From positions 140,253 to 204,252 of the forward strand of contig JAKAPK010000002.1 of the NCBI GenBank assembly GCA_021807125.1: DNA of 64,000 bases, in the 5' to 3' direction. The DNA comes from Nanobdellota archaeon (GTDB taxonomy: Archaea > Nanobdellota > Nanobdellia > Parvarchaeales > Parvarchaeaceae). Below are positions 24,981 to 43,986 of this stretch, piece after piece. The position numbers and the translations under genes were made by a program. Position 1 is the stretch's first letter. Every line of letters begins with the position of its first letter. The notes under the pieces were generated by a model. The model saw only the letters and a program-made list of their open reading frames with translations. It did not search any database and was not told the origin of the DNA.

Positions 24981-25016
24981 ATGGTTTTAAACTACGGTAA
25001 CTTTAAATAATTTGGT

Positions 25017-25100
25017 GGGCCGGTAGTCCAACGGCAAGACGCCACGTTCGCATTAATACGAAAATCGTGGAGACTTCGGGTTCAAATCCCGACCGGTCCA
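25017..25100 (+). tRNA. tRNA-Ala(CGC) with 12-nt intron at 37/38 (25053-25064)
   Basis: Acceptor GGGCCGG/CCGGTCC carries the G3:U70 Ala determinant; anticodon stem CCACG/CGTGG; TTCG pairs with intron CGAA in a BHB-type motif; T arm TCGGG-TTCAAAT-CCCGA. Confidence 0.92.
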
Positions 25101-25158
25101 TTATTTACGCAAGTACTCTGCAAAAAGGCTCAATTTCTAGCGAACGCCTTTATTAGAT

Positions 25159-39202: not shown

Positions 39203-39311
39203 TTTTAAAAATTGAAGTTCATTTTATTAAAACTTTTTTAGTTTACGGTCATATTGTGAATACTTGCTTCTTTAAATACATAAATTGCACAAATTCAAAT
39301 AAAATTAATAC

Positions 39312-41909
39312 ATGGAAAAACCACAGGTTGAAAAACTGATAAAAACCAGCATAGAAAAACAGCCAAAAAAATTCATACCGTTCAAGCAACTTGAGCAGCG
39401 GGGCTTCTCAAGACGCAAATGCAACGTCTGCGGTAAAAATTTCTGGTCTACTTCGGAGCGCGACGTATGTGGTGATGTATCCTGTGTTGGACATTACTCC
39501 TTCCTTGATAGCAGAATAACCAACATAAAGCTAAGTCAAGAAAATATATGGAAACGCTTTTCAAAGATGTTCCGCGGAACCGGTCATAAAGAAATAGAAA
39601 GGTACCCTGTAGTCGCAAGATGGAGAGACGACATATTTTTTGTTGAAGCGGCTATAGACGACTTTGCACCATACGTTATAAACGGAGTTGCAGAACCTCC
39701 AGCTAACCCCTTAATCGTACCACAGATATGCCTTAGATTTAACGATATAAATAATGTGGGTCTTACCGGCAGACACCTTACAAGTTTCATAATGGCAGAA
39801 CAGGCTGCGTTTAATACAAAAACAAAAAGGACGTACTTTGATTCCGAAGCTATAGTCTATATATATGATTGGTTAACTCGTGGGCTCGGCATCGATAAAA
39901 ACGAATTAGTATTCAACGAAGACGCATGGGTCGGCGCCGGATATGCTGGAAATTCTCTGGAATTTTTTGCGGGTGGACTAGAACTTGGAAACCAAGTATA
40001 TATGAGATACTCCGTTGATTATAACGGCTTGAAGGATCTGAAAACAAAGACCATTGATATGGGGGCCGGACTTAACAGGTGGGCTTGGATAAGTCAAGGC
40101 ACACCCACAGTGTACGAAGCGGTTTTCCCAAAAGTCATAGACTTCATAAAAAATAAGGTATCTATAGACTATCCAGAAGCCAGATTAAAAAAAGTGTATA
40201 AGGTACTAGGCCAGAGCGATTTTGAGGTCACTGATTTAAAAAGCGTAATAAAGGGCATTTCTAAGGAAATTGGAGATATGGCAGGAATCATCAAAATGAT
40301 AAAGGACATGCGCGCAGTGTATGCTATTGCAGACCATACAAGAACCTTGTTGGTGGCTATGCATGACGGTGCTCTGCCAAGTAATGTAGGGGGCGGGTAC
40401 AACTTAAGAAACATATTCCGCAGATCCTTAGATTTAATAAACGAGAGTGGTTGGAAACTTGATCTTAATGATGTAATAGAAGAACACAAAAAGGAATTCG
40501 GATCTTGGTTTAAGGAACTCAAAGAATATGATGCTTCTGATATAATAAAAAAAGAGATTGAAAGGTATAAAGACTTCAAAGTCAGAACAAACAAGACAGT
40601 ATCTTCAATCATAAAGGGCGGTTCTGTATCAGAAGAGGAAATGCTGAAACTTTATTCGTCTAACGGAATAACAATAGACGATATAAGACACGAGGCCGAA
40701 CTTTCTGGTATAGATATAGCGCTGCCGAACGCGTTTTACACGAAAATAAACAAACATGAATTTGGCGGTCCTAAAAAACTAAAACTGGATACGTCAAAAT
40801 TAGCGGCGACAAAAAAACTCTTTTATGATGAAAACTTACACAGCACGGAAGCAAAAATAATAAAAAAATTCGGTGACGATGCCGTTGTACTTGACCGTAC
40901 CATATTTTACCCTGAAATGGGCGGACAGAAACCAGATCATGGATACATCGACGATGCGAAGGTGGTAGACGTTCAAAAGCAAGAAGATGTAATAATTCAT
41001 TCGCTAGAGACCGCTATAAAAAAAGGTGAAGGGAAATTGGTAAAATTAAGACTTGATGTTGACAGGCGTGAACTTCTTAGGAGACACCATACGGCTACAC
41101 ACATAATAAATCAAGCCTGCAGAAGAGTACTCGGCGATTTTGTGTATCAAAATGGGGCGGAAAAGGACGTCGATAAGGCACATCTCGATATAACTTACTA
41201 CGATAATCTTACGGACGCACAGATTAAAGCCATAGAACACATGGCGAATGATATAGTTGCAAAAAACTTAGAAATGACGGTCAGTATGGTTGACAGAACC
41301 GAAGCTGAAAAGAGATATGGAATGAGCATATATCAAGGCGGTGCAGTACCAAGCGCTAAACTTAGAATAGTCCAGATAAAAGACTATGACGTGGAAGCGT
41401 GTGGGGGCTTACATTGCCATAGAACTGGTGACGTTGGAGTAATAAAGATAGTTAAGACCGAAAGGATACAAGATGGCGTAGTTAGGCTAGTATTCATGGC
41501 GTACAAACCTGCGATAAATTTCATAGAAGACCAAGAAAAGATAATAAGAGAACTATCGAACGTTTGGGGCGTCGGTCAAAATGACGTTGTTGAGACTGCG
41601 CAGAGATTCTTTTCCGGTTGGAAGAGATATAAGGACCTATATGAAAAATCAGAAGAGGAGCGCTTGTATCTTAGCATAGAATCAAAACTTAACGAACAAA
41701 ACATAGAGGTAACGACTACTTTCGAAAAAAGCAACGATCTTATAAGGATACTATCAAAGGTTAAGCCAAAACTACAAAACAGGTCACTATCGATATTATC
41801 CGCCAATGTTGCAATAGGATATCCAAACTCAGAATATGTAAAAAGCCGACTAGCAAAAAAATACAAGAATATCATAGAAAAGCCTGATTTCATCATAGCT
41901 TCGATTTAG
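39312..41909 (+). CDS. alaS: Alanyl-tRNA synthetase, archaeal type
   Basis: N-terminal CxxC..CxxxxC, YPVVARWRDD, GRHLTSF, IDMGAGL, ADHTRT, HHTATH and EACGGLH editing domain. Confidence 0.97.
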   Translation: MEKPQVEKLIKTSIEKQPKKFIPFKQLEQRGFSRRKCNVCGKNFWSTSERDVCGDVSCVGHYSFLDSRITNIKLSQENIWKRFSKMFRGTGHKEIERYPVVARWRDDIFFVEAAIDDFAPYVINGVAEPPANPLIVPQICLRFNDINNVGLTGRHLTSFIMAEQAAFNTKTKRTYFDSEAIVYIYDWLTRGLGIDKNELVFNEDAWVGAGYAGNSLEFFAGGLELGNQVYMRYSVDYNGLKDLKTKTIDMGAGLNRWAWISQGTPTVYEAVFPKVIDFIKNKVSIDYPEARLKKVYKVLGQSDFEVTDLKSVIKGISKEIGDMAGIIKMIKDMRAVYAIADHTRTLLVAMHDGALPSNVGGGYNLRNIFRRSLDLINESGWKLDLNDVIEEHKKEFGSWFKELKEYDASDIIKKEIERYKDFKVRTNKTVSSIIKGGSVSEEEMLKLYSSNGITIDDIRHEAELSGIDIALPNAFYTKINKHEFGGPKKLKLDTSKLAATKKLFYDENLHSTEAKIIKKFGDDAVVLDRTIFYPEMGGQKPDHGYIDDAKVVDVQKQEDVIIHSLETAIKKGEGKLVKLRLDVDRRELLRRHHTATHIINQACRRVLGDFVYQNGAEKDVDKAHLDITYYDNLTDAQIKAIEHMANDIVAKNLEMTVSMVDRTEAEKRYGMSIYQGGAVPSAKLRIVQIKDYDVEACGGLHCHRTGDVGVIKIVKTERIQDGVVRLVFMAYKPAINFIEDQEKIIRELSNVWGVGQNDVVETAQRFFSGWKRYKDLYEKSEEERLYLSIESKLNEQNIEVTTTFEKSNDLIRILSKVKPKLQNRSLSILSANVAIGYPNSEYVKSRLAKKYKNIIEKPDFIIASI

Positions 41910-41912
41910 ATT

Positions 41913-43454
41913 ATGGACTCACAAAAATACGACGCAGTAAAAATTGATAAGGCGGCTGCATCACTGATAAAAAGGAGAAAAACGTTAGAAAAACTGCAAA
42001 AATTGGCAAAAAAGAACGAAGTTGGTCTGGAAAATCTGCCGGAAAATGTAAAGCTTGCGATTAACGACGCTGGGCTACATGCAATTTTTTTAAAGGACGC
42101 CCTCATCAGATACAGAATATGTTCAAGTGAAATTTCGACGCAAAACTCTGGCAAGGCTGAGATTCAGTCGCTTGCATTTGATAGGGAAAAACTAGCGCGC
42201 GCTTATCCAGAAGCATCAAAAATATTTATGGATGGATACGGAATCGATGAACTACGCCTTAAGTGTCTTATTGAAGGGGCTGACGCCGAGACCGTGCACA
42301 GTCTTGAAGATATACGTTCAGCAATGAATTCATTTTGGGATTTAGTTCAGTGGGTAAAGAATAACAAAACTAACACAAAATCTTATAAGACAAACCAGCA
42401 TATATACGCAGAAAATCTTTGGATGGTTTCGAAATGGAACTCTATAAAATCTGACCTCATTAATGAGCTATTAGAATACAAATTTAATCATGCGGCTATA
42501 AGGCTAATAAAATTTATATCTGGTGATGTAGGCGCAGTGTATATTCGGTTTCTTAACGGCTTAAAACATGATTATGAAGACCAGACTACTTTCTTATCTG
42601 CAGAATACGTTATGAAACAGCTATGCGCGTATATGTCATATTTTGCACCATCTATTTCGATTTGTGCATATTATGAATTGAAAGACCGTTCCGATATACT
42701 GACCTTAATAAGGCCCTCAGTAGACAGGTCACTTATAAACAAGTATCTCGAGGACCGAATGGAAAAAACGATAAAATTAGCCTCAGAAATAAATTCCACA
42801 AGGCCATCTTTAGGAATACCTGGAAACGTGCCAATAAGTCAGGTAATATTACCAAACGTCACAAAAGACTCTATAGAAGAAAGTGCGTTGAAGAGGATGG
42901 CATCTGTAATAGAGATCGGCTACAACATAAACGAAGATGACTTTTCTATAGAACTGAACACTTTGCAATTAAATAGCACATATTCCCAAATGGAAGTTAC
43001 CAAGATAATAGGGAAGTTTCTTGAACTAACTAAAGGCACGATTCTGAGAAATTTGGTTAATGGGCTAGAAATAAGCGCAGACGGGAAAAAATATAACATA
43101 CCTATAAAAGACGTAAAACTGAAACCGCTGAAACAGAACATGCACGTAATTAACAGCGATTTATCAAAGATAATAATAAACACTGAAATGAACGAAAATT
43201 CGAAAAGGGAGTGGATAAAAAAAGAAGTGATAAGCTCTATAGAGAGAATACGCGAAGAAATGGGAATAAAATCAGGGTCTCTTATAAGATTCAACATAAG
43301 GTTTTCAGACCCGTACGAAAAGGAACTTGATGAAAATGCATTAAAAGAGGTCGGCCTCGCCGTAAACGGGGAACTTTCAGAAAGTGGCAGATTGCTTAGG
43401 ATTCAAAACTTAAATATAGATAGATACACAATTATTATATCAGTATTTAAATGA
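41913..43454 (+). CDS. Internally deleted, catalytically degenerate IleRS paralogue
   Basis: Segments align by eye with the IleRS N-terminus (YDAVKID..., KDALIRYR), the post-KMSKS YGIDELR, the helical anticodon-binding domain (YKFNHAA, VYIR, YFAP) and the C-terminal KEVISSIERIR; no HIGH or KMSKS. Confidence 0.7.
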   Translation: MDSQKYDAVKIDKAAASLIKRRKTLEKLQKLAKKNEVGLENLPENVKLAINDAGLHAIFLKDALIRYRICSSEISTQNSGKAEIQSLAFDREKLARAYPEASKIFMDGYGIDELRLKCLIEGADAETVHSLEDIRSAMNSFWDLVQWVKNNKTNTKSYKTNQHIYAENLWMVSKWNSIKSDLINELLEYKFNHAAIRLIKFISGDVGAVYIRFLNGLKHDYEDQTTFLSAEYVMKQLCAYMSYFAPSISICAYYELKDRSDILTLIRPSVDRSLINKYLEDRMEKTIKLASEINSTRPSLGIPGNVPISQVILPNVTKDSIEESALKRMASVIEIGYNINEDDFSIELNTLQLNSTYSQMEVTKIIGKFLELTKGTILRNLVNGLEISADGKKYNIPIKDVKLKPLKQNMHVINSDLSKIIINTEMNENSKREWIKKEVISSIERIREEMGIKSGSLIRFNIRFSDPYEKELDENALKEVGLAVNGELSESGRLLRIQNLNIDRYTIIISVFK

Positions 43455-43455
43455 T

Positions 43456-43986
43456 ATGGCTAAGATTTATAAAGTACAAAACATAGTCGCAAGCATATCC
43501 CTTAAAACACAGATACCTCTAAATAAACTGAAAAAATTACAAAATACGCAGTATAACCCAGACCAGTTTCCTGGTCTTGTATTAAGGTTACCAGATATAC
43601 ACGTTACTTTCCTGGTTTTCGGAAGTGGAAAACTTGTGTGCACTGGTGGTAGATCAAAGGAAGATATAATAAATGCAATGGGCAGACTACTGAAGGAGCT
43701 TAGAAAGATAAATGTAAATATAAGAACAAAATGGAAGATAGAAATACAAAACATTGTCGCTAGCGGCGATTTGAACCGCCCTCTTGATTTGAATAAGATA
43801 GCCTATGCCGTAGATGAGACAGAATATAACCCAGAGCAATTCCCTGGCTTAGTCTATAAACTTTCAAATTCAAAGATAACTTTCCTTCTTTTTGGCACCG
43901 GTAAAATTGTTTGTACGGGTGCAAAGAACATAGCAGAGATAGACGATGCAATAAAAATACTCGTATCAGCAATAAACAAAAAATGA
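43456..43986 (+). CDS. tbp: TATA-box binding protein
   Basis: Two repeats of QNIVAS, YNPxQFPGLV and FGxGKxVCTG. Confidence 0.97.
   Translation: MAKIYKVQNIVASISLKTQIPLNKLKKLQNTQYNPDQFPGLVLRLPDIHVTFLVFGSGKLVCTGGRSKEDIINAMGRLLKELRKINVNIRTKWKIEIQNIVASGDLNRPLDLNKIAYAVDETEYNPEQFPGLVYKLSNSKITFLLFGTGKIVCTGAKNIAEIDDAIKILVSAINKK

Follow-up and report, generated by a model that had tools for sequence, protein, structure and literature searches.

A hollowed-out ileS orthologue between alaS and tbp in one Parvarchaeota species: a candidate non-catalytic tRNA-binding protein

In a small Nanobdellota archaeon, the genes for alanyl-tRNA synthetase (alaS) and the TATA-binding protein (tbp) are separated by a single reading frame of 513 aa that recalls isoleucyl-tRNA synthetase (IleRS, encoded by ileS), which raises the question of where such a gene came from and what it might still do. 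The frame was studied in a stretch of 64,000 nucleotides (hereafter the window; assembly GCA_021807125.1, contig JAKAPK010000002.1, positions 140,253 to 204,252 of the forward strand), in which it occupies positions 41913–43454 on the + strand, stop codon included, begins with ATG and contains neither stops nor frameshifts. A first-pass annotation made from the sequence alone had described it as an intact 513-aa frame packed tightly between its neighbours, and re-reading of the open reading frame agreed, with gaps of 3 nt (ATT) after alaS and 1 nt before tbp. The analysis revealed that this gene, here called hollow ileS, is the native ileS of one Parvarchaeota species, a positional orthologue that was shortened by an in-frame internal deletion. 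With moderate confidence, we favour the explanation that the catalytically dead orthologue has been kept as a non-catalytic tRNA-binding accessory, while isoleucylation is provided by an ileS lying outside the assembly.

The gene order alaS, full-length ileS (about 1025 aa) and tbp was found in 11 same-genus relatives for which all three genes were captured; the relatives' proteins carry the source names Parvarchaeum or Acidifodinimicrobium (Parvarchaeota) and originate from acid-mine metagenomes. The best counterpart of the hollow protein in 22 same-genus genomes was the C-terminal portion, about 420 residues, of a frame of about 1025–1059 aa. A hidden Markov model (HMM) built from 14 full-length IleRS of the genus matched the hollow protein in two collinear pieces, the first pairing profile positions 3–70 with residues 4–70 (16 bits, E 7e-8) and the second pairing positions 602–1024 with residues 95–513 (278 bits), up to the last residue. 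This alignment was taken in place of that produced by MAFFT, which scattered the N-terminal 60 residues of the hollow protein. Profile positions 71–601 have no counterpart, and about 510–530 residues have been lost, comprising most of the Rossmann fold, the CP core, the CP1 editing domain, CP2 and CP3. The N-terminal remnant (residues 4–70; 41922–42122, + strand), delimited by the first HMM piece, consists of a Lys-rich helix, a degenerate HIGH region (NDAG) and the helix IFLKDALIRYR, and is followed in the gap between the two pieces by the deletion junction (residues 71–94; 42123–42194, + strand), which replaces about 530 profile positions. The relatives carry a full-length ileS at this locus and the hollow form is confined to one species. 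Of the 33 genus genomes searched, 29 contained exactly one full-length ileS and none contained two. Both marks of orthology, the same genomic position and a collinear sequence, were observed. The gene had been taken for an IleRS paralogue in the first-pass annotation, a label that has to be given up, since it occupies the ancestral alaS–ileS–tbp position and two ileS genes occur together in none of the genus genomes searched.

The hollow gene is real and fixed in the species. It was recovered with 100% identical DNA in GCA_027320125.1 (on a 541-kb contig) and in Logan SRR13206618, and as an allele of 99% identity, flanked by the same genes, in GCA_027370795.1 and ENA ERZ27233560. An exhaustive phmmer search of 1.84 billion representative proteins returned 60 weak matches. 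Those of about 500 aa were considered as other hollow IleRS and rejected: all of them have KMSKS and the second half of the Rossmann fold, which marks them as pieces of normal IleRS cut off at contig edges. When 5.8 billion clusters were searched by word index, the hollow protein itself was the sole match, and the literature searched contained no account of a comparable protein, either from Parvarchaeota or from other organisms.

The two catalytic signatures of the synthetase survive in decayed form. At the HIGH region, VHEGT of the relatives aligns with INDAG, placing N-D-A-G opposite H-[EPQ]-G-T, while the helix that follows shows clear homology, IFLKDALIRYR here corresponding to IFLKDSIIRYK in the relatives. 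The KMSKS loop reads K[LF]SKSEGNY in 14/14 relatives and KLARA---Y here, the degenerate loop KLARA being located at residues 93–97 (42189–42203, + strand) and followed by a 3-residue deletion. The first-pass annotation had read HIGH as INDA, where the alignment gives NDAG, inside an IleRS-like start of residues 1–80, which the HMM narrows to residues 4–70; it had also reported KMSKS as gone, which is true of the functional signature and not of the loop, still present as a degenerate change of KLSKSEGNY to KLARA---Y. Its further statement that CP1 editing, CP2 and most of the Rossmann fold were lost is borne out by the two-piece HMM match, which adds CP3 to the list. Family models gave a consistent picture. 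The TIGR00392 model scored 36.3 bits over profile positions 625–834 only, compared with a cut-off of 621.4 and scores of 705–750 bits for the relatives, and the best partial matches among NCBIfam models were valS and ileS models covered in their C-terminal thirds only (36–57 bits against cut-offs above 600). No match to PF00133 (tRNA-synt_1) was found in the hollow protein by the Pfam scan. Because the Rossmann/CP core is deleted and both HIGH and KMSKS have decayed, the product is not a synthetase, and it is predicted to be unable to activate isoleucine or charge tRNA. A separate observation concerns the intact enzymes of the genus: in 14/14 full-length IleRS the canonical HIGH is replaced by H-[EPQ]-G-T (NEVHEGT, NEVHPGT, NEVHQGT), a threonine standing for the second HIGH histidine in enzymes that are otherwise intact.

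The part of the protein that follows the deletion retains the fold of an IleRS tRNA-binding half. An AlphaFold2 model, with the relatives as alignment, gave a predicted local distance difference test (pLDDT) score of 79–94 over most of residues 131–513, within which seven 10-residue blocks drop to 58–77, while residues 1–130 were modelled as helical with low confidence. The top Foldseek matches in the PDB were Priestia megaterium IleRS2 (8c8v and 8c9d; E about 1e-16 to 3e-17), followed by yeast IleRS–tRNA complexes (8wnd and 8z1p; E 1e-14 to 4e-15), and the alignments to IleRS structures extended over 437–467 columns with the C-terminal domains included. The predicted fold, a helical bundle followed by alpha/beta C-terminal domains, matches IleRS only. 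At the sequence level, the class Ia anticodon-binding bundle was identified at residues 169–309 (42417–42839, + strand; pLDDT 74–94) by PF08264 (Anticodon_1; E 3.3e-11, 43.7 bits against a cut-off of 25.1), and a match to DUF5915 at residues 384–473 was sub-threshold (15.3 against 27 bits). No OB-fold tRNA-binding domain was matched by Pfam in the hollow protein, and a sequence-only search of the PDB with it gave no match. The retention of the anticodon-binding bundle and of the archaeal/eukaryal C-terminal extension, proposed at first reading, is thus supported by PF08264, Foldseek and the genus profile alike, and the structural comparison with class Ia synthetases suggested at the same time returned the tRNA-binding half of type-2/eukaryotic IleRS.

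The tRNA contacts that remain were compared with those of yeast IleRS, in which charging depends on C-ter B, the domain that binds the tRNA elbow, and the enzyme without C-ter B activates isoleucine but cannot charge tRNA; R736 and R739 of its anticodon-binding domain hold C32, A35 and U36, with R739A abolishing charging, R999 of C-ter C reads N34, and R838 supports C-ter A (PMC11685878). Yeast numbering was transferred by PDB alignments, for C-ter C by way of P. megaterium IleRS2. The equivalents of R736 (R212) and R999 (R447) are kept, as is that of R838 (R297) by a probable mapping, while those of R739 (N215) and R741 (L217) are lost together with a conserved S-R pair (G-A here), and Q996 is changed to E444. 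The motif DFSRTYIKLAKSRIF of the bundle is degraded to DVGAVYIRFLNGLKH. C-ter B, which binds the tRNA elbow in yeast IleRS, spans about residues 341–420 (42933–43172, + strand) and is the best conserved part of the protein. In C-ter C, which covers about residues 421–513 (43173–43451, + strand), the N34-reading Arg is kept as R447 and the neighbouring R, Q and K have become S, E and E. Two basic runs are altered, REKxKLxxKRP to RPSLGIPGNVP and KRE..R..Q..RK to KKE..S..E..RE. With the anticodon-loop contacts eroded, specific sequestration of tRNAIle, judged from these residues, appears doubtful. The first-pass suggestion of a tRNA-binding scaffold is accordingly plausible only in a modified form, with the elbow-binding C-ter B conserved on one side and the anticodon contacts eroded on the other. 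The erosion of the motifs is specific to the hollow-ileS species, since the IleRS C-terminus of a somewhat nearer lineage (ena:ERZ27233573:k141_957178) keeps all canonical motifs. That contig, of 1311 bp, is itself a hairpin (palindromic) assembly artefact, carrying the ileS 3′ end on both strands about a turn point and then the start of tbp, and the 224-aa protein predicted from it does not represent a genuine gene end.

The hollow gene evolves fast and its frame is open nonetheless. The C-terminal halves of the relatives' IleRS are 27–31% identical to the hollow protein, while 45–56% is seen among relatives at equal AlaRS divergence; the AlaRS (57–62%) and TBP (79–86%) identities of the hollow-ileS species to its relatives equal those between deep clades of the genus. 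In a neutral simulation carried to the same excess divergence, a mean of about 12 stops accumulated and 0/400 runs stayed open, and at 10% divergence only 1.75% of runs were open. The codon-usage score of 0.232 is close to the genome mean of 0.238 (40th percentile), with the other frames at -0.67 and -1.10, and the coding score is weaker over the N-terminal 130 residues. The signs of a pseudogene, namely stops, frameshifts and a lost coding signature, are absent from the 513-codon frame. Between the two strain alleles, the synonymous/non-synonymous single-nucleotide polymorphisms (SNPs) are 4/4 in hollow ileS, 7/2 in alaS and 5/0 in tbp, which gives hollow ileS a dN/dS of roughly 0.3 from 8 SNPs and suggests a weaker constraint than in alaS and tbp. 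The constraint is unevenly distributed along the protein. Of the sites conserved in at least 85% of the relatives, C-ter B (residues 341–420) keeps 15/18 (83%), the catalytic remnant with the stem-contact part 15/57 (26%), the anticodon-binding bundle 27/61 and C-ter C 10/28, and this uneven retention is significant (chi-square p = 8e-4; C-ter B against the catalytic remnant, p = 4e-5). The identity ratio reaches 1.14–1.17 in two 30-residue windows over residues 361–420 and is 0.68 in the window of residues 331–360. These site counts indicate that C-ter B is under ancestral constraint, while the catalytic and anticodon-reading sites have drifted.

The neighbouring genes share the same strand and form a tight cluster. 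Upstream, alaS (39312–41909, + strand; 865 aa) was identified by Pfam tRNA-synt_2c (E 3e-75) and tRNA_SAD, and downstream, tbp (43456–43986, + strand; 176 aa) by Pfam TBP (E 2e-57). An AT-rich spacer 5′ of alaS (39203–39311, + strand), the one non-coding gap of any size ahead of this three-gene cluster, presumably holds the promoter of an alaS/hollow-ileS/tbp unit. Whereas alaS and hollow ileS lie 3 nt apart here, the alaS–ileS spacing is 57–1713 nt in the relatives, so the compact arrangement is derived and the remnant lacks an upstream region of its own. The ileS stop and tbp start overlap (TAATG) in 7 of the 14 relatives examined. The relatives' alaS–ileS spacers contain AT-rich promoter-like sequence in some cases and additional small ORFs in several species; given this range of spacing and these extra ORFs, the alaS–ileS junction is a hot spot of insertion and deletion within the genus.

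The assembly comprises 653 kb in 7 contigs and is 78.6% complete; overlaps of 127 bp link its contigs into two chains, which leave four ends free. The right end of contig C3 (about 65489 in window numbering) falls inside a gene for a 1151-aa beta-propeller protein. A sister contig of 541 kb extends past this end, and 73.6 kb were walked along it (record 262157–335776), all absent from the species' own assembly save for one 76-bp tRNA-like match. The walked stretch encodes MCM, eIF2-beta, an AspRS-type gene, HisRS, a Tyr/TrpRS, SecDF, SufBD, NAD genes and genes of sulfate assimilation. As the sister assembly continues for at least 73.6 kb, the completeness of 78.6% reflects absent sequence, not gene loss. 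Neither TyrRS nor TrpRS was found in the own assembly, and since the walk yielded one Tyr/TrpRS, at least one more synthetase lies in sequence that has not been seen. With at least 74 kb that holds essential genes absent from the assembly, failure to find an ileS in the sequence read is not evidence that the organism lacks one, and a replacement ileS, if present, is probably foreign or located on another contig. The tRNA-Ile(GAU) gene is present in the assembly, on contig C7 (20930–21001).

According to the favoured explanation, the 513-residue protein would still be made, probably by co-transcription with alaS and tbp because the hollow gene's own upstream spacer and promoter have gone. Its grip on tRNA would depend mainly on the elbow (C-ter B) and on the surface of the anticodon stem, with weakened anticodon specificity, while tRNAIle would be charged by another ileS, relocated or foreign, in the part of the genome absent from the assembly. 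Several observations weigh against this explanation. The anticodon-loop contacts are eroded (the equivalents of R739 and R741 and the S-R pair), and R739A alone abolishes charging in yeast; likewise, C-ter A and C-ter C have lost the charge of their basic patches. The 8 SNPs are too few to reject neutrality (p about 0.11), and genus-invariant sites are kept at 48%, no better than in the IleRS of other orders (39–51%). The form occurs in one species only, with no second lineage found by exhaustive phmmer among the 1.84 billion representatives. HMM scans of the 653-kb assembly detected no other ileS, returning LeuRS, ValRS and MetRS only, and no IleRS occurs in the 73.6 kb walked beyond contig C3. 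Moreover, none of the 120 IleRS matches listed for a genus query, which include all genus-type ones (at least 47% identical), lies on a contig whose size is one of those known for this species' assemblies. The first-pass annotation had looked to a separate full-length ileS and had counted its absence against its own reading; the 653-kb assembly contains none, and that assembly is without at least 74 kb of sequence that includes synthetase genes.

The strongest competitor, which we regard as unlikely but deserving of serious attention, is a functionless relic: the native gene would have been gutted after another ileS took over, its frame staying open through recency or through translational coupling to tbp. 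Such a history would suit the decayed catalytic and anticodon-binding motifs, the limitation of the form to one lineage, a proportion of non-synonymous changes higher than in either neighbour, and the N-terminal 130 residues with their low-confidence model and weaker coding score. A coupling pressure is also plausible, given that the ileS–tbp stop/start overlap occurs in half of the 14 relatives and that stops would be polar on the essential tbp. However, a frame under pressure only to stay open would be expected to decay uniformly, and C-ter B keeps 83% of its conserved sites against 26–44% elsewhere (p = 4e-5 and 0.006); as the constraint is uneven and favours C-ter B, pressure to hold the frame open for tbp is insufficient. 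The overall codon usage is typical of the genome. The decay of HIGH and KMSKS implies a long time since the loss of catalysis, yet no stop or frameshift has appeared, and dead genes are normally removed from small genomes with a deletion bias.

An improbable possibility is that hollow ileS is half of a two-piece IleRS, in which a catalytic body encoded elsewhere would act with the C-terminal tRNA-binding domains in trans, following duplication and complementary loss. Split synthetase genes have been described in Nanoarchaeota and Micrarchaeota (PMC6349945), the C-terminal domains are needed for charging, as the yeast enzyme without C-ter B demonstrates, the hollow protein conserves C-ter B and the R999 equivalent, and the assembly is incomplete, all of which would be compatible with such an arrangement. 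Against it, no complementary catalytic IleRS fragment was found in the 653-kb assembly or in the additional 73.6 kb. The arginine that reads A35/U36 and the basic cavity are lost, though a tRNAIle module acting in trans should keep them, and a clean gene split would not be expected to leave 70 N-terminal residues and a degenerate KMSKS behind.

Still less probable is an organism without any IleRS of its own, in which Ile-tRNAIle would be obtained from a host or from another enzyme and the remnant, gripping the elbow of tRNAIle, would serve to capture or present that tRNA. None of the sequence examined for the species yielded an ileS, tRNA-Ile(GAU) is encoded, and a second type of ileS occurs nowhere in the genus genomes searched. 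On the other side stand the incompleteness of the assembly, with at least 74 kb of essential genes absent from it and at least one of TyrRS and TrpRS equally unseen, and the general retention of the core translation machinery by DPANN archaea. No archaeal cell is known to us to import charged tRNA or a synthetase. Finally, an artefact of assembly or binning, by which the collapse or chimerism of a contig would have produced a false internal deletion in this metagenome-assembled draft whose contigs are joined by 127-bp overlaps, was rejected as having a negligible probability, because the same 513-codon gene and context recur in five independent assemblies from differing pipelines and samples, two of which carry the 8 SNPs in the gene, and because the deep divergence of the retained parts cannot arise from misassembly.

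A few further features of the genome were noted. Near-identical strains differ at one spot, where a ParE-toxin/DUF2683 pair in one (L053 5462–5964) stands against a phage-type integrase with small ORFs in the other (L054 4188–5571), and the site looks like a strain-variable mobile insertion. In GCA_021836125.1, from the same species, the genes 5′ of the beta-propeller gene (L045 1–4800) are ThiF, Rpb7, Spt4 and ribosomal S24e/S27, while the sister counterpart of this stretch (L044 1–4870) contains MCM, eIF2-beta and DUF424; this difference is either a rearrangement or a misjoin at the repeat-rich gene. ARAGORN, with introns allowed, called a 'tRNA-Phe(AAA)' at 25016–25101 of the window (C3:165268–165353) with a 12-nt intron at an unusual position. 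Genome-wide, about 29 distinct tRNAs were found, and with so few, several tRNAs must lie in the absent sequence or be of atypical structure.

If hollow ileS is indeed kept as a tRNA-binding accessory, the orthologue of an essential class Ia synthetase has naturally been reduced to its tRNA-binding half and retained, while the non-catalytic synthetase relatives described earlier are old paralogues. The locus also raises the question of how tRNAIle is charged in a very small symbiotic archaeon, whether through an ileS that was relocated or is foreign, through a two-piece enzyme or through neither of these. Were it true that the species has no IleRS, a free-living-style translation system would be operating without one of the twenty synthetases, which would be unprecedented in archaea. 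For genome annotation, it follows that calls of 'ileS present' resting on the anticodon-binding domain alone can be wrong.

Among known systems, type-2 IleRS, represented by the genus enzyme of about 1025 aa, P. megaterium IleRS2 (8c8v) and yeast IleRS (8wnd), is related to the hollow protein by direct descent, and the genus enzyme shares its locus as well. The N-terminal 70 residues, the stem-contact and anticodon-binding bundle and C-ter A, B and C are homologous in the two, and the equivalents of R736, R999 and probably R838 are retained; in contrast, the hollow protein lacks about 510–530 residues, its HIGH and KMSKS are degenerate, and the R739/R741 equivalents and several basic contacts have been lost. 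The split synthetases, such as the AlaRS halves of Nanoarchaeum equitans and LeuRS alpha/beta of Aquifex aeolicus, resemble it in having a separate tRNA-binding C-terminal polypeptide and in occurring in reduced genomes. They are, however, encoded by complementary genes that both carry functional residues, whereas hollow ileS has an N-terminal stub, decayed motifs and no partner found; a retained half of a split enzyme keeps the residues it needs, and here the R739/R741 equivalents, the S-R pair and the basic patches have disappeared. HisZ, Arc1p, Trbp111, EMAPII, AlaX and YbaK are likewise synthetase-related proteins that perform no aminoacylation and are kept for another role, and Trbp111 and Arc1p bind tRNA by its shape. 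Trbp111 and Arc1p are built on an OB-fold and HisZ on a class II core, whereas the hollow protein combines a class Ia helical bundle with C-ter A, B and C, and we propose that the likeness to Trbp111 and Arc1p may be a functional analogy only. Proteins of the HisZ, Arc1p and Trbp111 type also constitute ancient, widespread paralogue families that exist beside an intact enzyme, while hollow ileS is a single-species derivative of an orthologue. The engineered truncations of yeast IleRS share its modular character, the C-terminal domains binding the elbow and N34 independently of amino-acid activation (PMC11685878). Those constructs removed C-terminal parts, whereas in hollow ileS nature has cut the complementary catalytic part, a natural dissection of IleRS that complements the laboratory truncations and suggests that the archaeal/eukaryal C-terminal domains have a role of their own.

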